DNA of 64,000 nt from a virus. The notes beneath the pieces are model-generated. The model was not told where the DNA came from. It saw only the letters and a list, made by a program, of their open reading frames with translations, and did not search any database. Positions 8,653 through 41,450 of this stretch are shown here, one piece after another. Within the stretch, counting starts at the first letter, position 1, and each line of letters opens with the position of its first letter. The stretch covers positions 8,667-72,666 of IMG/VR virus record IMGVR_UViG_3300047546_001437; one strand, 5' to 3'. Made by a program: the position numbers and the translations under genes.

Positions 8653-8668
8653 ATAAGGAGATAAAAAT

Positions 8669-10450
8669 ATGGCAACAGTAACAAAAGACTTCAAAGTAAA
8701 GAACGGTCTTATTGTTGAAGGCACAACAGGTACCATCAATAACCACGACATTCTTACAAAGAAGACAGACGATCAAAATTATATCGTCAACTTAATTGGT
8801 GGAACAGCCACCTCAGCAAACGAAGCAAACAAGGTTGTAAAGCGTGATGGCTCAGGCAACTTTGCTGCAGGAGTAGTAACAGCAGACCTCGTTGGTGATG
8901 TAACTGGTAATGCAGACACAGCAACAACACTTGAAACATCAAGAAAGATTGAACTTTCTGGAGATGTTACTGGTGAAGTAATGTTTAATGGCTCACAAAA
9001 TGTAGTCATTACAGCAACAATTGATGGATCTTTTGCAACAGATTCAGAAGTTGCTACAGCAAAGTCTGAAGCAATTTCAAGTGCAAATGATTATACAGAT
9101 GATGAAATTGCAGCAGAAGTAACTGCTCGTAATTCAGCAATTGCTACAGCAAAGTCTGAAGCACTTTCAGATGCAGCAGCAGATGCTACCTCAAAGGCTA
9201 ATGCAGCAGAAGCAGCAGCAATCGCTGCAGCAGCAGCAGATGCAACAACTAAGGCTAATGCTGCCGAGGTTGCTGCAAAGGCATACACAGATACTCGTGA
9301 GACTGCTATCACAAATGCATATCAGTCATATGCTAATCAAGCAGAACTTGATGCTATTTCATCAGCAAATGCTTATGCCGATGATAAGATTGCAGATCTT
9401 GTAGATTCTGCTCCAGCACTTCTTGATACACTCAATGAGTTGGCTGCAGCAATTAACGATAATCCAAACTTCTCAACAACAATCGCTACACAGATTGGTG
9501 AAAAGGTTGCTAAGTCTGGAGATACAATGTCTGGCGACCTTAATATGGGAAGCAACAAGGTTACAAGCCTTGCAGCACCAACTGCTAATGGAGATGCAGC
9601 AAACAAACTTTATGTTGATAATGCAGAGCAATCAGCAAAAGATTATGCTGATGACCTTGCATCAAATTATGATGCAGCAGGTTCTGCAGCAGCAGCACAG
9701 GCAGCAGCAGAAACATTTGCTACAAATGCAGATTCAGCACTTTATAATACAGTAACAGGTGATATTGCAACTGCTGTTTCAACTGCATCATCAGATGCTA
9801 CAAATAAAGCAAACACTGCACAATCAAATGCGGAAGCATTTGCTACAAATGCAATTAATGCACTTACAACTTCAGATATTGAAGAAGGTACAAACCAATA
9901 CTTCACATCTAATCGTGCAAAGATTGCAGCAGCACAATTAATCACAAGTGCAACAAAGACAAACATTCAAATCACAGGTGATGAGAATGGACTTACAATT
10001 ACTGCAGAAAATGGTGTTGCAGACTCTACAACATCAGATCTTGCAGAAGGATCAAACCTTTACTTCACAAATGCTCGTGCAGTTTCTGCTCTTGAAGCAG
10101 TAACTCCAGATTTCCCTGCAGTAGAGATTGCTTCCGTAGCAAAGCAGGTAGCGTCACAGGCAACTGTTACAACTGCAAGCACAAACACAGCAGTTTCATG
10201 GGCTAAGGCAGATTATCGTTCTGCTGAATTCCTTGTTAAGATTGCTAATGGAACTCATACAGAAGTTTCAAAGGTTATCCTAACACTTGATACATCAGAT
10301 AATATCGCAGTTACAGAATATGCAATGGTTGGAACAAACGGTTCTCTTGGATCAGTTTCAGCAGATGTTTCTGGAGCGGATGTTCGTCTTCGTGTAACAA
10401 CTGATAACAACAACTCAACAGTTGCTGTTGTTGGAACACTTTTAAAGTAA
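8669..10450 (+). CDS. Tail fibre / long Ala-rich coiled-coil virion protein
   Basis: SD AAGGAG; 'APALLDTLNELAAA' fibre motif; repeated 'DATTKANAA' and 'T.DL.EG.NLYFT..RA'. Confidence 0.7.
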   Translation: MATVTKDFKVKNGLIVEGTTGTINNHDILTKKTDDQNYIVNLIGGTATSANEANKVVKRDGSGNFAAGVVTADLVGDVTGNADTATTLETSRKIELSGDVTGEVMFNGSQNVVITATIDGSFATDSEVATAKSEAISSANDYTDDEIAAEVTARNSAIATAKSEALSDAAADATSKANAAEAAAIAAAAADATTKANAAEVAAKAYTDTRETAITNAYQSYANQAELDAISSANAYADDKIADLVDSAPALLDTLNELAAAINDNPNFSTTIATQIGEKVAKSGDTMSGDLNMGSNKVTSLAAPTANGDAANKLYVDNAEQSAKDYADDLASNYDAAGSAAAAQAAAETFATNADSALYNTVTGDIATAVSTASSDATNKANTAQSNAEAFATNAINALTTSDIEEGTNQYFTSNRAKIAAAQLITSATKTNIQITGDENGLTITAENGVADSTTSDLAEGSNLYFTNARAVSALEAVTPDFPAVEIASVAKQVASQATVTTASTNTAVSWAKADYRSAEFLVKIANGTHTEVSKVILTLDTSDNIAVTEYAMVGTNGSLGSVSADVSGADVRLRVTTDNNNSTVAVVGTLLK

Positions 10451-10993: not shown

Positions 10994-13111
10994 ATGGCAA
11001 CAAGAATGCAACAGCGCAGAGGAACTGCAGCACAATGGACTGCAGCAAATCCAATTTTAGCAGCAGGAGAAATCGGATATGAAACCGACACTGGTAAATT
11101 TAAAATTGGTGACGGTACTAACACTTGGTCTCTCCTCAAGTACTTCCTTAACTTAGAAGCATTAGACATAGATGCAGAGGGCTTTATTACAGATGATCAA
11201 AAAGGCGTTAATAACGGTGTAGCAACACTAGACTCAAATGGTCTTGTTCCAGTTATACAGATGCCAGATCAATATATTACAGATAAAATTATTACAAAAA
11301 TTGGAGAGGTTGTAGGGGCTGCCCCATCAACACTAAATACCCTTAATGAAATTGCAGCAGCATTTGACAACGATCCAAACTATGCAGATACAATTTCTGC
11401 AGCATTAGATTTAAAGGCACCAAAGGCAAGCCCAGCAATTACTGGAACAGCAACATTTGTAAATGCAACATTTAGTGGAGATGTAGATGTTCAAACTATG
11501 CCATTAAATGATAGTTCAACAAGACCTGCTACAACTGCATATGTTTCAGGAAGAATTCAAAATGTTAATACAGTTATATCAACATTAGCATCAGAAATAG
11601 ACGCAAGTCTTGAAACGCTTGGAGCAAACGATGCATCACAGGCAAGTTCTTTAGAAGCGCTTGATGTTCGTTTAGATTCAGCAGAGGCATCAATTACTGG
11701 AAATACAGCATCAATTGCAACAATTAATACAACTCTATCTGACCATACATCAGATATATCAGCATTAGATGTAAGAGTTGACGCAACTGAGTCTGATATT
11801 TCTACAATTAATGCAGATATCACATCTATTGAATCAAATATTGATACAGTAGAAGCAAATATAACAGGAATTCAAAGCGATGTAACAACATTGCAAAATG
11901 ATTTAAATGCTGCAGAAACAGATATCTCAGCATTGCAATCAGGAGCAACAACTACAACATCAACTATTTCAACAATACAAAATAATCTTACATCAATGAG
12001 TACTGAAATAGATGGAATTGATACAAGATTAACAGCAGCCGAAACTGATATTGATGCACTACAAACAAGTGCTACATCAGCAAGTGGACATGCTTCTGCA
12101 ACAACAAATGTTCATGGAATTGCAAATACAGCAGATCTTGCAACAAAGTCTTATGCAGATAATGCTAAGACTGAGGCAATTTCTACTTCAGCAACAGCAA
12201 TTGCCTTAAAGGCAGATATTGCTTCTCCAACATTTACTGGAACAGTAGTTCTTCCAGCAACAACATCTATCGGAACAGTATCTGCAACAGAGATCGGATA
12301 TGTTGATGGTGTAACATCAGCAATTCAAACTCAGTTAGATGCAAAGGCTCCTTTGGCATCACCAGCATTAACTGGTACACCAACTGCTCCTACCGCTACT
12401 GCTGGTACCAATACTACTCAGGTAGCAACTACAGCATTCGTTAAGACTGCCGTTGATAATGTAGTAGCAGCAGCACCTGGTGCACTAGATACTCTTAATG
12501 AGTTAGCAGCAGCACTTGGTAATGATGCAAACTTCTCAACAACATTAACAAACAATTTAGCAGCAAAGGCACCACTTGCTTCTCCAACATTTACTGGAAC
12601 AGTAACATTGCCTTCATCTACAAGTATTGGAAATGTTAGTTCAACAGAAATTGGCTATATTGATGGTGTAACGTCATCAATCCAGACACAATTAGATGCA
12701 AAAGCACCTTCTGCAAGTCCAACACTTACAGGAACAGTTGCTCTTCCAGCAGCATCTTCTGTAACTTTAAATGGTACAGCACTCTCAACAACATTGGCTC
12801 TTAAGGCAGATAATGCAGCAACAATTAACACTATGAGTGGTTCACACACAATTGTTTCTGCAGATGTTAGCAACGTACGTGAAATGAGCAATGGAGGAAC
12901 AATTACAATTCCTTCAGACAACTCTTTCTGGCCAGTAGGAGCAACCATGGATGTTATTCAAACTGGTTCTTCACAAGTAACAATCGGAGCAGGATCTGGA
13001 GTAACATTAAATGCTACACCAGGACTTAAACTTCGTGCACAATGGTCTTCTGCAACAATTCTTAAGAGAGCAGCAAATACATTCGTTGCTCTTGGCGACT
13101 TGTCAGCATAA
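10994..13111 (+). CDS. Tail fibre/spike with Mtd-N-like (major tropism determinant N-terminal) domain, heptad coiled coil and C-terminal adaptor domain
   Basis: 'MQQRRGTAAQWTAANPILAAGEIGYETDTGKFKIGDG'; heptad region; internal duplications 'KAPLASPTFTG..LP..TSIG.VS.TEIGY.DGVTS.IQTQLDAK'. Confidence 0.8.
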   Translation: MATRMQQRRGTAAQWTAANPILAAGEIGYETDTGKFKIGDGTNTWSLLKYFLNLEALDIDAEGFITDDQKGVNNGVATLDSNGLVPVIQMPDQYITDKIITKIGEVVGAAPSTLNTLNEIAAAFDNDPNYADTISAALDLKAPKASPAITGTATFVNATFSGDVDVQTMPLNDSSTRPATTAYVSGRIQNVNTVISTLASEIDASLETLGANDASQASSLEALDVRLDSAEASITGNTASIATINTTLSDHTSDISALDVRVDATESDISTINADITSIESNIDTVEANITGIQSDVTTLQNDLNAAETDISALQSGATTTTSTISTIQNNLTSMSTEIDGIDTRLTAAETDIDALQTSATSASGHASATTNVHGIANTADLATKSYADNAKTEAISTSATAIALKADIASPTFTGTVVLPATTSIGTVSATEIGYVDGVTSAIQTQLDAKAPLASPALTGTPTAPTATAGTNTTQVATTAFVKTAVDNVVAAAPGALDTLNELAAALGNDANFSTTLTNNLAAKAPLASPTFTGTVTLPSSTSIGNVSSTEIGYIDGVTSSIQTQLDAKAPSASPTLTGTVALPAASSVTLNGTALSTTLALKADNAATINTMSGSHTIVSADVSNVREMSNGGTITIPSDNSFWPVGATMDVIQTGSSQVTIGAGSGVTLNATPGLKLRAQWSSATILKRAANTFVALGDLSA

Positions 13112-13150: not shown

Positions 13151-14278
13151 ATGGCACTATCAAGAGGTAAAGGTGGAAGAAACATTAGAAAGGCGTCGGT
13201 GCCTTCCTTTGACCAAACATATACAAGAAGTTCATACCAATCATATTTATCAAGCATTGGTCTGTTTTATTCAGAAAACTCTACCAACACCTCTGATAGT
13301 GGTCTAGATCAGCGCTGGAATTCACAAAATATTGCTCCAGGTACAGTAGTTCCATTTGGAACAACTATTGGTATTAATTACTACATTTATGTATACCCTG
13401 GTTTTAGCCATTATGGTGGTTTCTATCATGGCTTCTATCATGGATTTGGTCACTATGCTGGATTTACACACTATGCAGCATTTAGCCACTATGCTGGTTT
13501 CACACACTATGCAGCATTTGGACACTATGCAGCATTCGGACACTATGCAGCATTCGGACACTATGCTGGATTCTATCATGGTTTCTATCACTCATTTGCA
13601 CACTATTCTTCATTTGCACACTATTCTTCATTTGCACACTACGCAAACTTTAGCCACTACTATAGTGGATTCTCTCATGGTTATGGCGGATTCGGACATG
13701 GTTATGGCGGATTCGGACATGGTTATGGCGGATTCTATCATGGATTCGGACACGGTTATGGCGGATTCGGACACTACGGTGGCTTTGGTGGTGGCGGAGG
13801 TGCCAGAGGCTACTCAATTGGTGGAGAAACTGGTCTATTAAGTCCAACAGGAGTTATCTTGGCTGAAAACTTAAAGGTAGGAGACAAGTTATTAGCACTA
13901 GATATTTCAGAAATAGATATGGCTGGATTTAATCCTTCACAATGGTCTTCAGAAACAATATCTGGAAACGGTATAGTAGAGACAACAGTAGTATCAATTA
14001 ATAGCAGAGTCTCAGATCGTGCTATTGTTATAAATGGAGATATTTACTCTATACATCACTGGATCTTAGCAAGAAAAGATGGCGTTATTAGATTCGTAAG
14101 TTCTTCAGACATAGATACAACATATGAAGTTTATAACTTCCAGACTCTAGACTGGGTCGAGGTTCAGTCTGCTGAAAGTATCGCTTACATTGATAGAGTT
14201 TATACAATTAACTGTGAGCCTTACGATATGTTCTTTACTAACTCAATGTTAGTATATGACCGAGTAGAAACTGACTAA
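13151..14278 (+). CDS. PASTA-like domain + Phe-x-His/Tyr/Gly repeat tract + C-terminal Hint (intein/Hedgehog-like) domain
   Basis: 'VP.F...L.SIGL......SQNIAPGTVVPFGTTI.I' PASTA-like; 22 FxH units; Hint blocks 'SIGGETGLLSPTG...AENLKVGDKL', 'YSIHHWIL', 'VYTINCEPYDMFFTNSMLVYD'. Confidence 0.75.
   Translation: MALSRGKGGRNIRKASVPSFDQTYTRSSYQSYLSSIGLFYSENSTNTSDSGLDQRWNSQNIAPGTVVPFGTTIGINYYIYVYPGFSHYGGFYHGFYHGFGHYAGFTHYAAFSHYAGFTHYAAFGHYAAFGHYAAFGHYAGFYHGFYHSFAHYSSFAHYSSFAHYANFSHYYSGFSHGYGGFGHGYGGFGHGYGGFYHGFGHGYGGFGHYGGFGGGGGARGYSIGGETGLLSPTGVILAENLKVGDKLLALDISEIDMAGFNPSQWSSETISGNGIVETTVVSINSRVSDRAIVINGDIYSIHHWILARKDGVIRFVSSSDIDTTYEVYNFQTLDWVEVQSAESIAYIDRVYTINCEPYDMFFTNSMLVYDRVETD
13403..13790 (+). 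repeat. Degenerate 12/18/21-bp tandem repeats encoding FYHG, FxHYAA/AG/SS and FGHGYGG
   Basis: e.g. GGACACTATGCAGCATTC and GGATTCGGACATGGTTATGGC units read directly. Confidence 0.9.
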
Positions 14279-14279
14279 T

Positions 14280-15026
14280 TTGGCCAGACTACCCAATCAC
14301 GATTACTATTCTGATGAGTGGGCAAACGAACCATTCATAATACCTGATCAATTATTGGCATTACAGCAAAAAAGAATTGGCAGTGCAACACCATATAGCA
14401 TAAGCCCTCAAATTGCAACATTTACTAGAAAGTATAGTGAAAAAATACAAAATGCTCCAGATCACGATGCTGTAGAATTTGCAAAATATGAGGTAGATTG
14501 GCAAAAAGAATATCGTGAGCAAAAACATTTATTTGTTCCGCAAAATCGATGGGCACATGAAGTTGTTGAGCCACCAGTTCACATAAAAGATAATTTATAC
14601 AAAATAAATGTATCTGCTGATGTTTATCCACATTTAGAACCTTTAGAGCATCAGTATGAAGAATCTGGAACAATCATACGTGAAAAAGAATATAGGTTTA
14701 TTACTAGAACACTTTATAAGTATGTGGATGCTACAAAAAATGTTGTTTTGGAAAAGGATTTAGATCCAGAGTGGTGTTCGAGAGTTTATGTTTGGAAAAT
14801 TAGATGGCTACCACAAAAACCAGCAGTTTTAACATTTTTTTCAAATGAGGATATGGTATACTGGAAGACACCAGAAACAATAGTTGATACAAAAGATATT
14901 GCAGAAGATGCACAAGGAGTGATAGACGTGCCAGTTATATTTAAAAAAGGACTTAAGCGCAGTATGCACTACATAAAGCATGATACAACAATACTATATA
15001 TGAAGGTAGATTTTCATGAAGAATAA
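14280..15026 (+). CDS. Hypothetical protein, possibly a diverged member of the family at 15016 and 15732
   Basis: TTG start 1 nt after upstream stop; C-terminal 'VWKIRW...VIFKKG...IKHDTTILYM' echoes 'VWDMRW...FLRKDFEGTIKKGTPIMSI'. Confidence 0.55.
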   Translation: MARLPNHDYYSDEWANEPFIIPDQLLALQQKRIGSATPYSISPQIATFTRKYSEKIQNAPDHDAVEFAKYEVDWQKEYREQKHLFVPQNRWAHEVVEPPVHIKDNLYKINVSADVYPHLEPLEHQYEESGTIIREKEYRFITRTLYKYVDATKNVVLEKDLDPEWCSRVYVWKIRWLPQKPAVLTFFSNEDMVYWKTPETIVDTKDIAEDAQGVIDVPVIFKKGLKRSMHYIKHDTTILYMKVDFHEE

Positions 15027-15732
15027 AACAAACATTATAACATTTATACCTAAAAATGAATTTGTTATAGAGTATACAGATAAACCAGAACCTATGATAA
15101 AAAATCTTCCTTCTTGGTGGAGAAAGGTTCATCCATATGTTAATGGAGAAAAAACTTTACGTAATGGTCAATATAGTGAGACTGTAAAAAAGTGTCCTGG
15201 AATATTAGATTTGCTATCTACAGGATATTTATTAAAAACACCATGCGATATTTTTCTAGATGCAACTGGACCAAAACTAGATTGGCAAGTTCACCATGCA
15301 CACAAAGAATCTGTTACAGTTCATTCTCAACCACAAGTTGAAGGCTGGGATTTTGACAAAAATGATTGGATGGAAGATATATTTAGAATTCATCCAATGT
15401 GGGTAGTAGCAACAGAAAAAGGTTATAGTACTTTATTTGTGCAGCCATCATTTCATACAAGCCTACCATTTGAAATAGTTCCAGCAATTATTGATACAGA
15501 CATGTATCCTTCAGATGGACCATTCTCTATGAGAGTTAAAAGAGGCTTTAAAGGTGTCCTAGAGGCAGGAACTCCACTAGTTCAATGTATTCCTTATAGA
15601 AGAGAAAAGTGGGAAGCAAATATACTTGAAAAGCCAGATTTGAAAGTTTTAAACTCTATACCTTGGAAATTAAGGCATAAGTTTGGCGGGGCATACAAAA
15701 AACTTATGTGGGAAAAGAAGGTGTTTAATTAA
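15016..15732 (+). CDS. DUF6065-like protein (dUTPase-like C-terminal pattern), paralog 1
   Basis: 'LP.WW.K...TVKKCPGILD..STGY', 'W.V.T.KGYS.LF..P', 'IIDTD', 'F.G.LEAGTPLVQCIP.RRE.W'. Confidence 0.6.
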   Translation: MKNKTNIITFIPKNEFVIEYTDKPEPMIKNLPSWWRKVHPYVNGEKTLRNGQYSETVKKCPGILDLLSTGYLLKTPCDIFLDATGPKLDWQVHHAHKESVTVHSQPQVEGWDFDKNDWMEDIFRIHPMWVVATEKGYSTLFVQPSFHTSLPFEIVPAIIDTDMYPSDGPFSMRVKRGFKGVLEAGTPLVQCIPYRREKWEANILEKPDLKVLNSIPWKLRHKFGGAYKKLMWEKKVFN

Positions 15733-16493
15733 TGGATAAATTTGAAGAAAGATATGCAAACCCAGAACCACTTGAAAATTTAAAGGTTCAGTTTTATACA
15801 TCTAATGCATATGTAAATACAACTCCTGGTCCAGTGCCAGCAATTGACAATCTTCCAGAATGGTGGAAGGATCGTCCTATATATCAAAAAAATGATCAAA
15901 TTGATAGACTATCTATCATGAATAATCGTGGTGCAGATGCTGCATCAATTAGTGTAAAGCATTGTATGCCATTTTTTGATGCAATAACTTGTGGATATCA
16001 TTATTTATTGCCAACAGATGTTCATGTTGCAAAAACAGAAGACCCAGATAGACCAGATATTTGGTGGGATGAAGATGCTCCAAGACCAATTGAGATGCGT
16101 GGTCATTTAGAGTTACCAGTTCCATCTGGATGCTATCCAATTCATTTTGTTTGGGATATGAGATGGGGAACAAAGATGCCAGACGGATGGTCTGCAATGA
16201 TCACACACCCTATAGACAGATATGATTTACCATTCTTTACTATGACAGCCATACAGGATTCTGACAGATGGTTTACTGGAAACGTTGTTACCTTCTTTTT
16301 AAGAAAAGATTTTGAAGGTACAATTAAAAAGGGTACACCAATAATGTCAATTATTCCAATAAAAAGAGCAAACTGGAATATGGAAATAGACCATTCCCTA
16401 CAAACTGAGGGTTTATGGGATCTTGAAAGAAAAAGAAATTACATTTATGGATTTTATAAAAAACATAGATGGATCAGAAAGAAATATAGATAG
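15732..16493 (+). CDS. DUF6065-like protein, paralog 2
   Basis: 'LPEWWK...SVKHCMPFFDAITCGY', 'W..K.PDGWS.MITHP', 'IQDSD', 'FEGTIKKGTPIMSIIPIKR..W'; TAATG-coupled. Confidence 0.6.
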   Translation: MDKFEERYANPEPLENLKVQFYTSNAYVNTTPGPVPAIDNLPEWWKDRPIYQKNDQIDRLSIMNNRGADAASISVKHCMPFFDAITCGYHYLLPTDVHVAKTEDPDRPDIWWDEDAPRPIEMRGHLELPVPSGCYPIHFVWDMRWGTKMPDGWSAMITHPIDRYDLPFFTMTAIQDSDRWFTGNVVTFFLRKDFEGTIKKGTPIMSIIPIKRANWNMEIDHSLQTEGLWDLERKRNYIYGFYKKHRWIRKKYR

Positions 16494-33362: not shown

Positions 33363-36300
33363 ATGGCTGATATTCAGTCAAATATTCAAGTAAATATAGA
33401 TACGTCGGAAGCGTTAGCAAGTATAAAGGCGCTTCAACGACAGATATCAGCCTTTCACACCTCAATGGCAAAAAGTGGTGCTGCTGCTGCTGCAGTATCC
33501 GCTAACTTACAACAAAACTTAGTTAACTCTCTTAATGCTACTGGTAAGTTTGCAGCAGAGATGCGAACAATTCGCACAAGTACAGAATCATTTACAAATT
33601 CTTTAGAAAAAAATAAATTTACAATGCGGGAATACTTCCGCTATGCTGGTGCATCAACAAAAACCTTTGGCAGACTTTTTAGATCCGAATTTGATACTAT
33701 TGAAAAGGTTGCTCGTGAAAGAGTAAAAACTTTACAAACACAATACATAAAGATGGGCCGTGATGCCAACGGTGCAATGAAGGCAATTGCTGTTAGACCT
33801 CTTGCACTCGATATGGAAAATCTTGCTACAAAAACTCAAATTGCAGCACAAAGACAGCAACTCCTAAATCAACTTCTTAAGCAAGGCTCTACAAATCTTC
33901 TAAATTTTGGTAAGAATACACAGTGGGCTGGTCGTCAGTTAATGGTTGGTTTCACAATTCCTTTGATGTATCTTGGCACTGCAGCATCTAAAACATTTAT
34001 GAAATTAGAAGAGCAGGCTATTAGATTTAAGCGTGTTTATGGTGAAATGTTTACAACTGGACAAGAGACAGACAAGATGCTCAAAGAGGTTCAGTTACTT
34101 GCAAAAGAGTTTACAAAGTATGGCGTTGCTGTTGAAAAAACAATGGAAATGGCTGCAACTGCAGCAGCAAGCGGTAAAATGGGAGCAGACTTACTTGCAC
34201 AAGTAAATCAGGCAACACGACTTGCAGTTCTTGGTGGAGTAGAGCAAGAGCAAGCACTCGAGACAACAATTTCATTAACTAATGCTTTTGGTGTAGCAGC
34301 AGAAGATTTAACTAAAAAGATTAACTTCCTTAACGCAGTTGAAAATCAAACTGTTGTATCTATTGAAGACTTAACAGTTGCAATTCCAAAGGCTGGACCA
34401 GTGGTTCAACAATTGGGTGGAGACGTAGAGGATTTAGCATTCTTCCTAACTGCCATGAAGGAAGGTGGAATTAATGCATCAGAAGGTGCCAACGCACTCA
34501 AGTCTGGTCTTGCATCATTAATTAATCCAACTAAAAAAGCAAGCGCAATGCTTGCTGATATGGGAATTAATATTACAGGAATTGTTGAAGCAAACAAGGG
34601 TAACGTAAAGGGAGTAGTTGTTGAATTTGCTAAAGCATTAGATACTCTAGATCCACTAAATCGTGCTCGTGCAATTGAGCAGTTATTTGGCAAGTTCCAG
34701 TTTTCACGTTTGTCTACATTATTTCAAAATGTTATTGCACAAGGCAGTCAGGCAAGTCGTGTTTTATCTTTAACACAGGCAACCACTGAAGAGTTAGCAA
34801 TTCTAGCAGAACGAGAATTAAAGCGTGTTGAAGAATCCCCAATGTATAAATTTAAGAAATCTATTGAAGATCTTAAAGTTACTCTTGCGCCAGTAGGAGA
34901 AGCATTCCTTAAGGCTGTAACACCAATTGTAGAATTTGTTGCAAAAATATTAGATAAGTTTAATAACTTAGGTGATGGTGCCAAAAACTTTGTTGTTATT
35001 TTAACAACTGTTCTTGCTGGTATTGGTCCAGTAGCACTTATGACATTTGGTTTGCTTGCAAACGGATTAGCAAACATTATTAAACTGTTTACAAGTGTTA
35101 AAAGTTTATTTAATCGTGTAGGACAGTCATCTCAAACACTTGGTGCCACAACCGAATACATGACACAAGAACAACTACAGGCTGCTGCAGTAGCGTCGTC
35201 GCTTGATCAAGTTCATAATAAATTAATACAAACATTTACATCTGAAAGAAATGCACTTACTGCTTTAATTGCTGCATATCAAAGAGCAGTTGCAGCACAA
35301 GCAGCATTTATGCCAGTTGCTGGAATGGTTCGTGGCAAGGGTGGTCCAAAGAAATTTAATAAGGGTACAGTTGGTGTACGTTATTATGCTAATGGAACAG
35401 ATACAGTTCCAGCAATGCTAACTCCTGGTGAAGCAGTAATTCCTGCAGGACCAGCACAACATCCAGCCAATAAACCAGCAATTGCATACATGGTTGCAGG
35501 TGGTATTCTTGGACAACATGCTACTGGAACCACAAAAATTGTTGGAGACAGATCTGTTGGTTTTGGTGGAAAGCAGTTTGTTGCATCTACCAGTGCCAGC
35601 GTTATTGGAATTCAGAATTTAATTAAAGATGCACAAAGACTATCTGGTGTAATCTCAAATATAGACGATTTAATTTTACAGGCATTGAATGAAGCAGTAA
35701 ACGCAATTAACTCAAAGGGTAAAGTTTCTATTAAAAACTTTAAGTCTGCACTTGCAACTGTGGGTGGCGGAGCAATTCCTATGGGCAAAACAACAAAGGC
35801 TTATCAAGGTGGATTTGCTGGAAATGCTGGAGTTGTTGCTGCACACGGAACTCCTGGTGTAGTTCTTTCTGCATCTCAGGCAAATAAACTTGGAGCACAA
35901 CTAGCCCCAGGTGCAGTGGCAAGTCAATTAATGCAAACAACTGGAAATGTAAGAATGCTTTCAAACATGACATTCCCAATGCCAGCATCATTTAATAAAG
36001 GACAAATGACTGGTGCAGAAGGTGCAAAATGGGTTGGACAAAATAGAGCAAGATTTACATCTATGATTGCACAACAGCATGGCTTAAGTCCAAATGATCC
36101 AGGACTACTTGAGTTTGGAAAAATTATTGGACAAGCCTTAAAACGTATGGGTAATACTGTTGTTAGCGAAAGTCAGTTTGAAGAGATTATTGAACAAGGA
36201 CTAAAGAGAGATCTTGATGCAGCAGCAAAGGGAGCATTATTAAAGTCTAAGAATACATTTGCAACTGCACAAATTGGTGGATTTGCTGGACGTGCAGGAC

Positions 36301-39300
36301 ATGGTGGAATACAAAGAGTAAATCTTCCAGCAAATGCAGCAGGACAAAGTTTTGCTGGACTTAATTTAGGTGGAAGAAGTTATAGGTCTCAAAATATTGC
36401 TCAATACAATGAACAGGCAGATAAGTTTGTAGTAAAAAGAGTTAGAGAACGTGCAAAGAGATTTGCAATTACAACTGCAACAGCATTTGAGTCTGGAATA
36501 AAAGAAGTTCTTCAGGTCGCATCTCCTTCAAAGAGAATGCAAAAAATTGGACAAGACTCTGGTCGTGGTCTTATTCTTGGAGCACAAGAGTTTGTAGATG
36601 ATGCAAGAGCAGCAGGACAACAAATTGGTGGCGCTGCTGCACAAGGAGTGATGAGCCAATCTCAAAAGATTGCAGCCTCAAGAACAGCACTTTATGGAAC
36701 TGGGCCAATAGATCCTGCACAGAAATCAATAAGAAGACAATTAGAAAAACAAGAAAGACTTCGTGCTATTCAAGAAAGAAGAATGCTTCAGCAAAGTACA
36801 GTTGCTGGAATGGTAGCAGGCGGAGCAGGAGTAAAGAATGCACCAGCACCTGCCGATCCAGATGGTCCTGGAACTACTAGAGGAAGAATGGGTGCTGGAA
36901 CAGGAATGATGGCAGCATCTGGGGTTATGATGGCAGCATCAATGGCACCAGGAAAAGTTGGCGAGGTAGCACAAAAATTAATGATGCCATTAATGACATT
37001 AACAATGCTCCTTCCATTAATTCAAAGCCCATTGGGAGCATTTGCAGTTGGTTTAACAGCAGTTGTTGCAGCAACCCTTGCTCTAAGGATGGCATTTGAC
37101 AAAGCACAAGATAATGCAATGAAAATGGCTGAAGCCATGGGTAGTGGTGAAAAGGCCATTCAAGATTTATCTGAGTTTGCTGGAACTGCTCGTGCTGGAG
37201 AAATTATGGATAAGAGAAGGTCAAATGCTCTTTCACAATTCCAGGTTCAACCAGGAAAGACTACATTTGGACAAGCATATGTTCAGTCTGAACAAGGCAA
37301 GGCAATGCTTAAGAATATAACAGAAACAATGCAGACTGGTGGTAAGGGTGCTGCTAAGAGCCAACTAATTAATCAATTAACAACTGGTGTTGCATCTGGT
37401 GCAATCACTGTAGAACAAGCAAGAAGTATGGCAGCAAACATATCACAGCAACTAGGAGATTATGGTTTTGGAATACAGGTAAGTGCAAAGTTAACTGAAT
37501 TGCTTGGTGTTAATGGAGAAAACTTACAGAAAGATCCATTAACGCTTAGAGTAAGATTGGTAGAAGAATCAAGAAAAGATTTGCAATCAAAATCTAAACT
37601 ACTCAACACTGCTGCCCCAGGAGCATTGACACAAACACAAGGTAAGGTCCAAATGGCTGGTCTTGGTGCTGTAGGAGCCATAGCAGGAGGCAGTTTAGCA
37701 GCAGGTGCATTAGCGGGTGCAACAGCAGGATCTGTAGTCCCAGTAGTTGGAACTGCAATTGGTGCTGCGATTGGTGCAACAATTGCTGCAGGTGTTGGAT
37801 ACTTTGCTCAAAAAGGTCAGCAGGAAAAACTTGGTCGTGCTTCTGGAGCACATGTTGCAATGCAAAAAATGGCATTAGAACAAAGTCAAGAAATGCAAGA
37901 TTCACTTAGACTTGAATACGAACAAAGAATTGCTAATGCTAAGGCAGCAGGAGACACTGCTGAAGCAATAAGATTACAAGGAGAGTATGAGGCAGCAAAT
38001 GCTAAACTACTTGCTGAAAATGGAAGACTTGTAACGGATATACAGACGACATATGCTAATGCATCAGGTGCGGTTAAGGGAGCACTTGAAACTGGTGTTG
38101 ATAAAGCAATCACACAAAAATACAAGGGTACAGCAATGGAAGACATTGCACCAATGGCAAAAGATTTAATTAATGATAGTGGGCTATCTAAAGAGCAGCA
38201 ATATACATTAAAGATGCAAGTTGCATCTGGCAATATGGACCCAATGCAAATTGTAAATCTTATGGATTCATTTGGAAAAGATCAACAAACACTTACAAAG
38301 GTAATGGAAATTGTTACAAAATTTGGTGGAACTTTTGCAAATCAAGCGATGTCTATATCTAGTTTGTTTGTCGACAAAGATGGTAAGCCACTTAAGAAAC
38401 AACAGACAAAGTTTATTGCAGATATTAGTACTAAGACTCCAGCAGAAGCAGAAAAATATCTAAATCTATTTACTCAAATTGGCAAAGTCGGACAATCTGA
38501 ACTTGTAGATCTTGGAGTTGCACTAACATATTATAATAATAATCCAGAAGCAGCACAAAAACTAGATGAAACTATTAATAAGATTAATGAACAAAAAGGA
38601 AAGATAAGTCTTGATATTGCAACAAAAATTGTTGGTGCAAAGGAAATGGAAGTTCTTAGAGCAAATCAGGAATACTTTAACTCTCTTCCACCAGAACAAC
38701 AAAAGATATACTTGCAAACACTAACAACTGTTGTTAATATGGAAGGTAATAATAAAGATGCAGTTCAGGCTTGGCTTAAGGCAAATCCTGGAAAAACAGA
38801 ATTAGATTATTATGGTCAAGCAACATACCAAGTAACAAAAACATCTTCAGACTCAACAACTAAACCAACTGGCAAAACTCCAAGCAGTGCAGGTAAGGCA
38901 GAGTCCTCCGTTCTTGACGACCTATTAAAGAAATTAAGAGATGTTAGAAAGAATCAGATTAAGGTTACTGAAGGCTGGGGCGCTTCTCGTAAAGCATTAG
39001 AAAGTTTGTTTGGTGGAAAGAAAACAATTACAGCATTTAGTGGTATAGAGCAAGACTTAAGAAAACTTGGTGCTGGACAAAATCTTATTGAACTTATCAT
39101 TGGTATGGATCCAAAAGAATATGAGAAACGTAAAAAATCTTTATTTAAGTTTGATAATAAAGGAAATATTATTGGTCTAAAAAGAGATGCTAAGAATATT
39201 CAAGAAGCACTCAATTCAATAGTTGCTGGACAGTTCCAGTCAGGAATCGAAGAGCAGAGACAAGGAATTATAGATCAAAATAAAGCATTTGAAAAACTAT

Positions 39301-41450
39301 CACAACTAGGAGTTCCAGTAGGAAAGGCGTATGAACTTATTGCTGATAAATCTTTTAGAGCAATGATTGCTACCGCTAAAAATAAAAAAGAACTTAAGTC
39401 AATGATTGACCTTTATAATAAATTTATTAAAGAGCAAGCAGCAAGTGATGCTGTCGCAGATGCAAATAAGGCTTTAGAAGATTTTGGCAAAGACTTTAAT
39501 TTAACTGAAAAAATTAAAATGAATTTTTCATACGAAGAAGCCCAAGCAATATTTGCAGACCCAGTACTTAAAGCATTGGTAGAGGCTGGTCAAGAGGGCT
39601 CTGAACAATTTAAAAAACTACTAGAAGCAAGAATGAGCACTATTGACTTTATGCAGGGAATATTTGATGACGGATTTAATAAAGCGATGGAATGGTTTGA
39701 TGTACAAGAAAAATCAATTCAACTAGACTTTGAATTGGGAACAAACATTAGTGGAAAAAATACTGTATCAGATGCTCTTGCCAAACTTTATGAAGGTACC
39801 CCAGTATTTACTGGTCCAGATGGAAAACCAATTTTAACTTTTAATCTTGAAGCAGATGCAAAGAATATATTAAAGTATGAAGATGAAGTTGCAAGAATGC
39901 AATACCAGATTGATGACTGGGAGTATTCGTTAAAGGAAATTGAAGATCAAGAAAATAAAATTAATGAATCTTATGATGCTAAATATAAAGCATTAGATGC
40001 AATTGCACAAGTTAATGCTAGAATAACTCAGCAAAATAAATCACAGTTAACTATTGCAGATGCTTTAGCGCAAGGAGATATTGCAGCAGCAGCAAAGGCT
40101 GTTCAAGAAGCACGTGCTCAAGCAGCACAAAACGCAATAGATGACCAAAAGAAGGCTTTAGATCAGGCAAAAGAAAACGCATTGGCCAATGTTAGAAATT
40201 CTCAAGGCTTTACAAGAGTTCAGATAGAAGAAAAAATAAAAAATCTTCAGGATGAAATTGCAAAGATTGAAGAGGCACAACTTGAGCCAGCAAGAGAAAG
40301 AAATAGACTTGCAGAAGTATTAAAGGAGCAGGCTGTTTCTACTTTAGAAGTTCTTGGAAAAACACGTACCGAATGGGAGCAGGTAAAGAACGGTATTGAT
40401 TTGGCAAGAGTAACGAGCAAAGAATATCTTGCTGCAATGCAGGCTGCCCTTGATATTGTAGATAAAATTAAGAAATACTGGAATGATTTAAATAATAAAG
40501 AATATAAGACTTATCATAAAATAATAACAACCTTTGAATCAGGAACTGGTGGACCAGGTCCAGAGACACCACCAGTAGAACCACCACCATTTGTTCCGCC
40601 ATCTGGTCCATATACTGCGCCAGACGATCCATTTATTCCTAGTGGTGGATACACCGCTCCAAGTGGTTCAACGAATGGTTCAAAGGGAGGCTCATCAGGA
40701 GGATCGACAAATAAAGGTTCTTATTCAGCACCTGGCACAGACATTAATTATGGTTTAAATACTGGTGGATCCACTGCTGCACTACATTTACAAGATTTAG
40801 CAAGATTGGCAAATGCTGTAACAGTTGCTAATATTACAAAAAATGCTGGACAGACTGCTGGTCAGCATGTTAATGATTTATTAAATATGAATGCTAGAGC
40901 AGATGCATTTTCAAAAGAAATAATTAATGCTAATGTAAAAAAGATGGGTTCAACTGCATACGGACATCTAGACGAACTCACAAACACTCCAGCACAAAAA
41001 GCAGCATCAGCAGCAGCCTTCGCTGCAGAGGCAAAAGCAGCAGCAGCAAAGAAAGCAGCAGAGGAAGCAGCAAAGAAAAAGGCTGCAGCAGATATTAAAA
41101 AGTTTGGTGGAAATGCAATAGCAGCATCACAGTTTGCAAATTGGCCTAGTGGAAAAGCATCTGGTGGATTAATTAAAAGATTTGCCTTGGGTGGACCAAT
41201 TATAGGAACCGATGTTGTTCCAGCAATGTTGACACCAGGTGAATTTATAATGAGCAGATATGCGGTCGAGTCATTTGGTGTAGATAAGATGAAGGCTATT
41301 AATAGCGGAACATATGATTCTGGTTCAGTGTATAATTATAACTTAAGCGTAAACGTAAGGTCTGACGCAAATCCAGATCAGATTGCAAATACTGTTATGG
41401 CAAAAATACGACAGATTGATTCGTTGAGGCTGAGAGGCGGAAGAATGTAA
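33363..41450 (+). CDS. Tape measure protein (2695 aa)
   Basis: TP901-type core ('LAAMKEGGI.ASEGANALKS'-like 'LTAMKEGGINASEGANALKSGL'), 'ASPSKRM' motif, TM segments, coiled coils, C-terminal 'GTDVVPAMLTPGEF'. Confidence 0.92.
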   Translation: MADIQSNIQVNIDTSEALASIKALQRQISAFHTSMAKSGAAAAAVSANLQQNLVNSLNATGKFAAEMRTIRTSTESFTNSLEKNKFTMREYFRYAGASTKTFGRLFRSEFDTIEKVARERVKTLQTQYIKMGRDANGAMKAIAVRPLALDMENLATKTQIAAQRQQLLNQLLKQGSTNLLNFGKNTQWAGRQLMVGFTIPLMYLGTAASKTFMKLEEQAIRFKRVYGEMFTTGQETDKMLKEVQLLAKEFTKYGVAVEKTMEMAATAAASGKMGADLLAQVNQATRLAVLGGVEQEQALETTISLTNAFGVAAEDLTKKINFLNAVENQTVVSIEDLTVAIPKAGPVVQQLGGDVEDLAFFLTAMKEGGINASEGANALKSGLASLINPTKKASAMLADMGINITGIVEANKGNVKGVVVEFAKALDTLDPLNRARAIEQLFGKFQFSRLSTLFQNVIAQGSQASRVLSLTQATTEELAILAERELKRVEESPMYKFKKSIEDLKVTLAPVGEAFLKAVTPIVEFVAKILDKFNNLGDGAKNFVVILTTVLAGIGPVALMTFGLLANGLANIIKLFTSVKSLFNRVGQSSQTLGATTEYMTQEQLQAAAVASSLDQVHNKLIQTFTSERNALTALIAAYQRAVAAQAAFMPVAGMVRGKGGPKKFNKGTVGVRYYANGTDTVPAMLTPGEAVIPAGPAQHPANKPAIAYMVAGGILGQHATGTTKIVGDRSVGFGGKQFVASTSASVIGIQNLIKDAQRLSGVISNIDDLILQALNEAVNAINSKGKVSIKNFKSALATVGGGAIPMGKTTKAYQGGFAGNAGVVAAHGTPGVVLSASQANKLGAQLAPGAVASQLMQTTGNVRMLSNMTFPMPASFNKGQMTGAEGAKWVGQNRARFTSMIAQQHGLSPNDPGLLEFGKIIGQALKRMGNTVVSESQFEEIIEQGLKRDLDAAAKGALLKSKNTFATAQIGGFAGRAGHGGIQRVNLPANAAGQSFAGLNLGGRSYRSQNIAQYNEQADKFVVKRVRERAKRFAITTATAFESGIKEVLQVASPSKRMQKIGQDSGRGLILGAQEFVDDARAAGQQIGGAAAQGVMSQSQKIAASRTALYGTGPIDPAQKSIRRQLEKQERLRAIQERRMLQQSTVAGMVAGGAGVKNAPAPADPDGPGTTRGRMGAGTGMMAASGVMMAASMAPGKVGEVAQKLMMPLMTLTMLLPLIQSPLGAFAVGLTAVVAATLALRMAFDKAQDNAMKMAEAMGSGEKAIQDLSEFAGTARAGEIMDKRRSNALSQFQVQPGKTTFGQAYVQSEQGKAMLKNITETMQTGGKGAAKSQLINQLTTGVASGAITVEQARSMAANISQQLGDYGFGIQVSAKLTELLGVNGENLQKDPLTLRVRLVEESRKDLQSKSKLLNTAAPGALTQTQGKVQMAGLGAVGAIAGGSLAAGALAGATAGSVVPVVGTAIGAAIGATIAAGVGYFAQKGQQEKLGRASGAHVAMQKMALEQSQEMQDSLRLEYEQRIANAKAAGDTAEAIRLQGEYEAANAKLLAENGRLVTDIQTTYANASGAVKGALETGVDKAITQKYKGTAMEDIAPMAKDLINDSGLSKEQQYTLKMQVASGNMDPMQIVNLMDSFGKDQQTLTKVMEIVTKFGGTFANQAMSISSLFVDKDGKPLKKQQTKFIADISTKTPAEAEKYLNLFTQIGKVGQSELVDLGVALTYYNNNPEAAQKLDETINKINEQKGKISLDIATKIVGAKEMEVLRANQEYFNSLPPEQQKIYLQTLTTVVNMEGNNKDAVQAWLKANPGKTELDYYGQATYQVTKTSSDSTTKPTGKTPSSAGKAESSVLDDLLKKLRDVRKNQIKVTEGWGASRKALESLFGGKKTITAFSGIEQDLRKLGAGQNLIELIIGMDPKEYEKRKKSLFKFDNKGNIIGLKRDAKNIQEALNSIVAGQFQSGIEEQRQGIIDQNKAFEKLSQLGVPVGKAYELIADKSFRAMIATAKNKKELKSMIDLYNKFIKEQAASDAVADANKALEDFGKDFNLTEKIKMNFSYEEAQAIFADPVLKALVEAGQEGSEQFKKLLEARMSTIDFMQGIFDDGFNKAMEWFDVQEKSIQLDFELGTNISGKNTVSDALAKLYEGTPVFTGPDGKPILTFNLEADAKNILKYEDEVARMQYQIDDWEYSLKEIEDQENKINESYDAKYKALDAIAQVNARITQQNKSQLTIADALAQGDIAAAAKAVQEARAQAAQNAIDDQKKALDQAKENALANVRNSQGFTRVQIEEKIKNLQDEIAKIEEAQLEPARERNRLAEVLKEQAVSTLEVLGKTRTEWEQVKNGIDLARVTSKEYLAAMQAALDIVDKIKKYWNDLNNKEYKTYHKIITTFESGTGGPGPETPPVEPPPFVPPSGPYTAPDDPFIPSGGYTAPSGSTNGSKGGSSGGSTNKGSYSAPGTDINYGLNTGGSTAALHLQDLARLANAVTVANITKNAGQTAGQHVNDLLNMNARADAFSKEIINANVKKMGSTAYGHLDELTNTPAQKAASAAAFAAEAKAAAAKKAAEEAAKKKAAADIKKFGGNAIAASQFANWPSGKASGGLIKRFALGGPIIGTDVVPAMLTPGEFIMSRYAVESFGVDKMKAINSGTYDSGSVYNYNLSVNVRSDANPDQIANTVMAKIRQIDSLRLRGGRM

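Follow-up and report, generated by a model that had tools for sequence, protein, structure and literature searches.

What does a Hint domain do when it closes a phage protein and is followed by only five more residues? Known forms of the domain are mobile inteins, Hedgehog processing modules and the bacterial intein-like (BIL) domains of secreted bacterial proteins. In the window analyzed here, a 64,000-nt stretch of viral DNA (IMG/VR record IMGVR_UViG_3300047546_001437, positions 8,667 to 72,666; all coordinates below refer to the window), a first-pass annotation had marked positions 13814-14278 as an atypical terminal Hint domain with a serine nucleophile, a Tyr-Asp end and no C-extein. This stretch constitutes the C-terminal 154 residues of a 375-residue open reading frame (ORF) on the plus strand, 13151-14278, whose product combines a PASTA-like domain, an aromatic repeat, the Hint domain and a short tail; the landmark coordinates of the ORF were verified codon by codon. 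In the following, we establish the fold, catalytic register, conservation, architecture and gene neighborhood of this protein, and argue that the Hint domain is not a mobile intein but a BIL-type autoprocessing cap, which would undergo an N-to-O acyl shift at Tyr221|Ser222 and release the PASTA-repeat fragment by hydrolysis. We assign this reading a probability of roughly 0.55; every chemical step, and likewise the association with the virion, is inferred.

Searching Pfam with the query ORF, or with the domain alone, returned no family at E ≤ 1. Homologues were compiled from a protein database (13 sequences) and from viral loci, where 294 pattern matches led to 198 loci of the Hint-capped family in IMG/VR that were confirmed by tblastn. 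The best 80 of these 198 loci yielded 57 non-redundant viral domain sequences with 37-75% identity to the query within the domain, and this set served as the alignment for both the structural model and the conservation counts given below. AlphaFold2 predicted an all-beta fold from this alignment, with a predicted local distance difference test score (pLDDT) of 90.4 and a predicted template modeling score of 0.86. Comparison of the model with the PDB using Foldseek produced 46 matches at E ≤ 1e-3, and among the matches listed all were BIL domains, inteins or Hedgehog proteins, with a BIL domain of C. thermocellum (2lwy) and the BIL2 domain of the Tetrahymena BUBL locus in the top ranks, followed by mini-inteins and Hedgehog. 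In line with this, VIA-align against 48,161 chains gave Z-scores of 18.4 (6tmm, BIL2), 16.7 (2lwy), 16.7 (NrdJ-1 intein) and 16.6 (1at0, Hedgehog). Each of the 29 chains at Z ≥ 8 adopts the Hint fold and 27 Hint-fold entries were matched at Z 12-18, compared with Z 2.5 for the best unrelated fold.

Sequence profiles point in the same direction. Among PDB sequences, the family profile matched 2lwy (E = 7e-5, limited to the N-terminal third) and the gp41-1 intein (E = 7e-3), and sub-threshold Pfam matches in the 57 relatives were to Intein_splicing (PF14890; 29 relatives), Hint_2 (PF13403; 15) and PT-HINT (PF07591; 2). None of the Hint-type Pfam models reached its curated cut-off in 82 full-length representatives (32.7 vs. 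35.8 bits in the best case), which is why current annotation misses the Hint-capped family. As judged from the model and the fold searches, the C-terminal 154 residues are a genuine Hint domain whose nearest neighbors are BIL domains, inteins and Hedgehog; the structure prediction by which the first-pass annotation wanted its domain call to be checked thus bore it out.

The catalytic register could be read from structural as well as sequence alignments. In several VIA alignments (e.g. to 2imz, 2cw8 and 7cfv), Ser222 (residue 9 of the model) falls on residue 1 of the intein and Asp370 (residue 157 of the model) on its last residue. When aligned with the Aes123 PolB1 intein (9hth), the 'sesH' of the family profile coincides with the block B sequence 'TADH', and the profile segment 'vysInCEPYDnFFTenmLvfd' with 'VYDIEVDGNHNFFGNDILVHA', placing F:4 at Thr352, F:13 at Asp359, G:6 at Tyr369 and G:7 at Asp370. 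All motifs quoted in the first-pass annotation (Y|SIGGETGLL..AENLKVGD, YSIHH, VYTINCEPYDMFFTNSMLVYD and RVETD) are present in the ORF; its block assignments agree with both the PolB1 intein alignment and the structural pairing, and the nucleophile, the unusual end and the missing C-extein it described correspond to Ser222, Tyr369-Asp370 and the five-residue tail, respectively.

Conservation is concentrated on these landmarks. Ser222, Thr227, His303, Cys355, Glu356, Pro357, Asp359 and Thr363 are each identical in 57/57 relatives, and position 300 in block B is Ser or Thr in 53/57 (Ser 43, Thr 10, Val 4). F:4, a Thr in the query, is occupied by Ser (47), Thr (9) or Arg (1), and G:6, the Tyr preceding the end residue, by Phe (34), Tyr (14), His (6) or others (3). 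The end residue itself, G:7, is Asp in 51, Asn in five and Glu in one of the relatives, i.e. always a side chain able to cyclize according to PMC4031507. The +1 position, Arg371 in the query, is more variable (Arg 21, Ser 11, Thr 5, Ala 5, others 15) and Cys does not occur there, whereas +3 is Asp or Glu in 48/57 relatives, making the tail non-random. This acidic +3 had escaped the first-pass annotation. Taken with the conserved end residue, it suggests a role for the C-terminal junction as well. We additionally considered whether the invariant Cys355 might betray a class 3 intein, in which a position-1 nucleophile is missing and a Cys at block F:4 is part of a WCT triplet (PMC4031507), and rejected this reading: Cys355 lies three positions past F:4 (Thr352; Ser/Thr in 56/57 relatives), and Ser1 is present.

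A profile search of 1.84 billion cluster representatives (50% identity) extended the family to 735 matches at E ≤ 1e-3, 208 at ≤ 1e-10 and 70 at ≤ 1e-30. From a wider-family sample of 162 proteins, 103 could be aligned at position 1 (many of the remaining 59 being truncated), revealing Ser in 77, Cys in 25 and Tyr in one case, and the block-B His is found in 142/155 aligned representatives. Where both ends were aligned (n = 100), the combinations were Ser..Asp (64), Ser..Asn (9), Cys..Asn (23), Cys..Asp (0) and others (4), a striking raw pattern (Fisher p = 3e-15). A His-Asn end, seen in 0/57 near relatives, occurs in 22/100 wider-family proteins, all with Cys1. In these Cys-type relatives, the His-Asn end is followed by 1-17 residues, and the overall layout of fn3 or PASTA domain, Pro/Phe repeat and Hint domain is the same. 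The family hence also holds the canonical catalytic set, members of which had gone unmentioned in the first-pass annotation, and the Ser/Tyr-Asp form of the query is therefore a derived variant within it. Co-evolution of nucleophile and end residue was considered and dropped: on a tree built without the position-1 and end columns, Ser and Cys switch only ~2 times, leaving 1-2 independent contrasts, and a topology with all Cys members in one clade is not rejected (p-AU 0.89). Since the Ser/Cys pattern is essentially one split on the tree, no co-evolution is claimed.

This conservation bears on whether the domain is active at all. As a catalytically silent module, the Hint fold would stay on the protein as a C-terminal knob for binding or oligomerization, and the replacement of the F:4, F:13 and G:6 residues that assist canonical inteins would fit such a role. 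The most strictly kept residues, however, are precisely those that the chemistry needs (Ser or Cys at position 1 in 102/103; the block-B His in 57/57 and 142/155), and clades with the full canonical Cys...TxxH...His-Asn set have the same architecture. The first-pass annotation had left release, ligation in trans and a dead module side by side. Given that Ser1, the block-B His and a cyclizable end are retained at 37-75% identity, and that Ser gives way only to Cys in 102/103 aligned wider relatives, we consider the dead module improbable; release and ligation are inseparable by sequence and are weighed against each other below.

The verdict of the first-pass annotation that this is not a mobile intein stands, since the domain is terminal with a short tail, has no endonuclease insert and, in the query, is not followed by a +1 nucleophile. 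Across the 57 relatives, the domain measures 146-157 residues, which leaves no endonuclease insert in any of them, and it is C-terminal in every case, with a tail of 3-12 residues in 54/57 and of 28 residues in 3/57; it is likewise terminal in most of 150 listed representatives. A single copy is present in the 72.7-kb virus record containing the window. One might still picture a decayed mobile intein whose C-extein was lost through truncation of the host gene, given that blocks A, B, F and G are intein-like and that half of the near relatives (29/57) produce the sub-threshold Intein_splicing matches mentioned above. Such a history is hard to square with a terminal position and short tail shared by all 57 relatives and most of the listed representatives, with the lack of an endonuclease domain, and with N-terminal partners that differ among members (PASTA in 18 and fn3 in 30 of 82), so that no conserved host protein is interrupted. 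We therefore regard it as very improbable.

Taken together with the N-terminal domains described below, these features lead us to propose that the ORF encodes a phage appendage-type protein, in which a PASTA-like, putatively cell-wall-binding domain and a floppy repeat are followed by a Hint domain that would act once on its own chain. Because the position-1 nucleophile and the block B [ST]xxH motif are both present and invariant, we infer an N-to-O acyl shift at Tyr221|Ser222, in which Ser222, aided by Ser300 and His303 of block B, would attack the carbonyl of Tyr221. The resulting ester would then be resolved, most simply by water, freeing the 221-residue PASTA-repeat fragment (...GGGGGARGY) from the 154-residue Hint-plus-tail portion, and Asp370, at the place of the cyclizing Asn of inteins, may also clip the RVETD tail. 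The Hint domain would in this way serve as a self-removing cap during folding or assembly of a fiber-associated protein. There is precedent in BIL domains, which have no +1 nucleophile and yield mainly cleavage products (PMC4031507, PMC7765530). Inteins with Asp, Gln or Glu as the end residue are known to cleave by cyclization (PMC4031507).

Several points weigh against release by hydrolysis. The query lacks the Asp at F:4 (Thr instead), the His at F:13 (Asp) and the penultimate His (Tyr) that assist canonical inteins, so rates, and even the pathway, may differ. Oxygen esters are also less reactive than thioesters, and plain N-terminal hydrolysis would leave the conserved end residue and the acidic +3 without an explanation. 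As to the putative virion association, the indications are gene position, a weak PHROG match (labeled 'virion structural protein', E = 3e-6) and the RefSeq product name in Dickeya and Erwinia phages; the main text of the article on Dickeya phage AD1, which encodes the homologue gp108, mentions neither gp108 nor mass spectrometry, inteins or collagen (PMC6143709).

The C-terminal junction would be put to use if the domain spliced in the manner of type A BILs, i.e. without a +1 nucleophile. Here, Asp370 would cyclize and the alpha-amine of the tail would attack the Ser222 ester, joining the N-terminal fragment to RVETD and excising the Hint domain. Such a mechanism has been proposed for type A BILs (PMC4031507), and the best sequence match of the family is a solved BIL domain (2lwy). 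The end residue, Asp, Asn or Glu in 57/57, and the acidic +3 in 48/57 are compatible with it, as are the 16/57 relatives with Ser or Thr at +1; the AD1 homologue ends in AHN|T, its 10-residue tail starting from that Thr, and members of this type could even splice canonically. In the query, however, +1 is Arg and the penultimate residue Tyr instead of His, five residues added to a disordered repeat would bring no obvious gain, and cleavage products of BIL domains outweigh the spliced product (PMC4031507), which renders splicing of the query doubtful. In three of the loci (L016, L020 and L023, with Hint genes ending near 2807, 1784 and 2269), the domain ends in THD, followed by Ser and a conserved 28-residue tail (SISWLTDNEGNAILD...); with a His-Asp end and Ser at +1, these could splice canonically onto a real mini C-extein.

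Alternatively, the Ser222 ester might be resolved by an external amine or hydroxyl in place of water. The Hint domain would then be a single-turnover ligase that joins the PASTA-repeat fragment via Tyr221 to another molecule, with candidate acceptors on the virion side (a Lys of the neighboring fiber protein, or a different virion protein) and on the host side (a free amine in the stem peptide of its peptidoglycan). The best structural match is BIL2 of the BUBL locus (Z 18.4), which is reported to link the C-terminus of the domain upstream of it to a Lys side chain through an ATP-independent isopeptide bond (PMC8616854, section 2.4), and the Hedgehog Hint domain (Z 16.6) passes its N-terminal fragment on to cholesterol (PMC7765530). 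Moreover, a tether with a binding domain at its distal end needs an anchor at the other, and the gene is tied to a fiber gene (69/79 loci). Set against this, the acceptors are candidates only, oxygen esters donate acyl groups poorly to amines, the five residues after the Hint domain offer no region for recognizing an adduct, and the conserved basic N-terminal residues of the protein could instead attach it non-covalently. We thus view ligation as a minority possibility. A slightly smaller chance is given to its specific form, an ATP-independent, single-use phage ligase in which an amine attacks the Ser222 ester after assembly or host contact. Were the cap a ligase of that kind, the repeat tether would be covalently welded to the virion or to the PASTA-bound host wall, and phages would have their own equivalent of BUBL ubiquitin-like conjugation or sortase anchoring.

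What would be released by hydrolysis, as in the autoprocessing reading that we prefer, is a two-part protein whose PASTA-like N-terminus was absent from the first-pass annotation. The Pfam PASTA model (PF03793) is matched by 12/19 close relatives at E ≤ 1 (best 1.4e-9), although not by the query itself. The family profile matched PASTA repeats of Ser/Thr kinases (3m9g, 2kui) at E-values of 1e-3 to 8e-3, and hhalign to a Pfam-positive PASTA repeat of P0033 gave a probability of 97.6% (E = 4e-12). At the level of profiles, residues 14-82 are accordingly homologous to PASTA repeats, and we refer to them as PASTA-like. The first 13 residues (13151-13189; consensus MALQRxxxRxxRK) are basic and kept across near relatives, and might serve in attachment or recognition. 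More widely, the heads of the 82 full-length representatives comprise PASTA (18) and fn3-type (30) domains, one protein having both, and TIG (1).

The 139-residue repeat that follows contains 39 Gly, 24 Tyr, 23 Phe, 22 His, 16 Ala and 10 Ser, such that Gly, Tyr, Phe and His account for 78% of it, in units such as GFxHY, AFGHYA and GYGGFGH. Its DNA consists of tandem repeats with periods of 12, 18, 21 and 36, two of them with a 100% match; the perfect repeats, of 18 and 21 nt, are located at 13592-13641 and 13676-13735. This makeup of the DNA suggests a recent expansion of the repeat, whose copy number is probably unstable. A low-complexity stretch rich in aromatic residues, Gly or Pro directly precedes the Ser in 57/57 relatives, even though the unit varies among them (GFxHY, FFPP, FTPFG, GAF, VIIAEP, GSPV).

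The family is nearly confined to viruses. A pattern scan of 185,579 species genomes (one genome per species) revealed just two confirmed matches, both on ~10-kb contigs of metagenome-assembled genomes labeled Gammaproteobacteria and Saccharimonadales. Both contigs are probably of phage origin and were sorted into cellular bins, and hence no host was inferred from them. One viral contig carries two different Hint-capped genes (L039 and L063; 429 and 312 residues), implying that some phages encode more than one such protein. A megablast comparison of the 11 kb surrounding the query gene with 50,697 phage records gave no match, and the relatives found in cultured phages were those of Dickeya phage vB_DsoM_AD1 and four Erwinia phages (7 records, 27-28% identity). 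In the available text of the literature on BIL/Hint domains and phages, we found no description of Hint-capped phage appendage proteins; the matches concerned true inteins in terminase or ribonucleotide reductase genes, or were general reviews. We conclude that this is a large, phage-specific and almost purely viral family outside the Pfam models, and that the domain type itself is known, the query being a Ser/Asp variant of it.

The virus looks like a siphovirus-type phage, its genes encoding portal, protease, capsid and tape-measure proteins as well as a DnaB-like helicase and a DNA polymerase. The tape-measure protein (33363-41450) is 2695 residues long, implying an unusually long tail. Among 79 related loci that were compared, the tail-fiber gene directly upstream of the Hint gene has a homologue in 69, and the phrog_7084 pair downstream (annotated 'unknown function') in 59, often directly after the Hint gene. 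A phrog_7084 product (model pLDDT 86) resembles trimeric dUTPases over about half its length (VIA Z 9.3-10.1 over ~118/238 residues), with weak support from Foldseek (E = 2.7e-3). The gene that immediately follows the Hint gene is limited to the near clade of the query (23/79 loci). Its product retrieved nothing in the PDB profile search and scored ≤ 0.84 in the ESM Atlas, and invariant Trp, His, Asp and Arg residues suggest an enzyme or binding protein. The fourth downstream gene, with homologues in 40/79 loci, could encode an oxygenase that travels with the repeat protein: ESM Atlas scores of 0.96-0.97 link it to viral clusters with PF13759 (2OG-FeII_Oxy_5) in 57-79% of their members, while Pfam on this gene family returned nothing below E 0.017. 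When profiles of the three families encoded downstream were compared with PDB sequences, no match was significant, the best E-values (2.3, 0.36 and 0.014) all being to unrelated proteins. The coordinates of all features are compiled in Table 1.

Table 1. Parts of the Hint-capped ORF and genes surrounding it, in window coordinates.
Feature	Position	Strand	Basis
Whole ORF, 375 residues plus TAA: PASTA-like domain, aromatic repeat, Hint domain, 5-residue tail	13151-14278	+	ORF call
PASTA-like N-terminal domain, residues 14-82	13190-13396	+	Pfam PASTA PF03793 matches of relatives, profile, hhalign
Low-complexity repeat, residues 83-221, ending GGGGGARGY	13397-13813	+	Composition, DNA tandem repeats
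Tyr221, last residue before the junction	13811-13813	+	Codon check
Hint (BIL-type) domain, residues 222-370	13814-14260	+	Model, fold searches, profile vs. PDB sequences
Ser222, putative nucleophile (intein position 1), then SIGGETGLL...AENLKVGD	13814-13816	+	Structural pairing, conservation
Block B, S300-I-H-H303 ([ST]xxH), within YSIHH; His303 codon 14057-59	14048-14059	+	Alignment with 9hth TADH
Blocks F and G, VYTINCEPYDMFFTNSMLVYD, ending Tyr369-Asp370	14198-14260	+	Register from 9hth alignment
Tyr369-Asp370; Asp370 codon 14258-60	14255-60	+	Codon check
Five-residue tail RVETD plus stop (miniature 'C-extein'); TAA 14276-78	14261-14278	+	Codon check
Fiber-type gene, upstream of the Hint ORF	8669-10450		
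Tail-fiber gene, 705 residues, directly upstream	10994-13111	+	Pfam Mtd_N 3e-15, PHROG tail-fiber families 7e-41
Gene of unknown family, 248 residues, starting 2 nt past the Hint-gene stop	14280-15026	+	No Pfam or PHROG match
Two tandem phrog_7084 paralogues, 238 and 253 residues	15016-15732, 15732-16493	+	PHROG 5e-40, 5e-27
Candidate 2OG-Fe(II) oxygenase, 220 residues	16502-17164	+	ESM Atlas features only

To the known kinds of Hint domain, these data add a large, almost purely viral family. Its members carry the domain as a fixed cap at the C-terminus of aromatic-repeat proteins that have a PASTA or fn3 head and whose genes lie next to tail-fiber genes. If active, the cap would provide phage appendages with a built-in maturation or attachment step and constitute a naturally occurring self-cleaving tag of the Ser/Asp type; a ligating cap would represent a new viral route to covalent links.

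Compared with known systems, the query has the features that define the Hint superfamily, namely a predicted all-beta fold, a Ser at position 1 and a block B [ST]xxH motif. The C. thermocellum BIL domain 2lwy shares the fold (Z 16.7, root-mean-square deviation 1.7 over 130 residues) and is the best sequence match in the PDB, serving here as the nearest proxy for type A BILs. Like the query, type A BILs possess an N-terminal nucleophile and the block-B His, lack a +1 nucleophile (Arg371 in the query) and reside in variable, non-housekeeping proteins; unlike the query, with its Ser1 and Tyr-Asp end, they carry Cys1 and a conserved His-Asn end (PMC4031507, PMC7765530). BIL domains are also bacterial, whereas the present family is viral and always C-terminal, with a tail of 3-28 residues. 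Type B BILs have the intein motifs minus block G. In the query, block G is in register with that of the PolB1 intein (MLVYD vs. ILVHA, the latter being the solved N159A mutant of an ILVHN end in 9hth), which speaks against type B, but its two key residues differ.

BIL2 of T. thermophila BUBL1 (6tmm, 6y75; solved as C1A-N143A mutants) is the closest structural match (Z 18.4, 139 residues aligned, Foldseek E = 1e-6), and its substrate is the C-terminal end of the preceding domain, as it might be in the query by analogy. It differs in being placed between two ubiquitin-like domains, in its Cys1 and terminal Asn, and in sequence (14% identity), and isopeptide formation has been reported for it (PMC8616854), whereas the phage protein is known here from sequence and a model. 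The Hedgehog Hog domain (1at0) has the same fold (Z 16.6) and also stands at the C-terminus, from where it sets free an N-terminal 'cargo', as proposed for the query. In Hog, the Hint domain is followed by a region for sterol recognition and the cargo is passed to cholesterol (PMC7765530); the query has RVETD alone at that place, and a Ser instead of Cys. Class 1 mini-inteins, including those with Asp or Gln ends, have blocks A, B, F and G in the same register. What sets the query apart from them is the absence of a C-extein, of Cys, Ser or Thr at +1, of the penultimate His (present in 6/57 relatives), of insertion into a conserved host protein and of a homing endonuclease; its Tyr369-Asp370 end retains a cyclizable residue, Asp being an accepted substitute (PMC4031507).

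In cultured phages, the relatives found are gp108 of Dickeya phage vB_DsoM_AD1 and its Erwinia homologues (phrog_38766), annotated as 'virion structural protein' or 'putative tail protein'. The protein gp108 (L082:2984-4423) aligns with the family at an hhalign probability of 97.8% and, like the query, has a repeat region followed by a C-terminal Hint domain and a gene located among tail-fiber genes. It differs in its collagen-like Gly-X-Y repeats, in the lack of a PASTA domain and in a fully canonical intein-type set (Cys1, block B THEH, and AHN followed by Thr and nine residues). Coming from a cultured jumbo phage, gp108 would offer a tractable experimental model for the family. A functional analogy, finally, is provided by the Peptidase S74 chaperone domains of phage tailspikes and fibers, which cleave themselves off the C-terminus at a conserved Ser after assembly. 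They belong to an unrelated family (all 29 chains at Z ≥ 8 being Hint-fold), and the parallel lies in the layout of a C-terminal module that would remove itself from an appendage protein.

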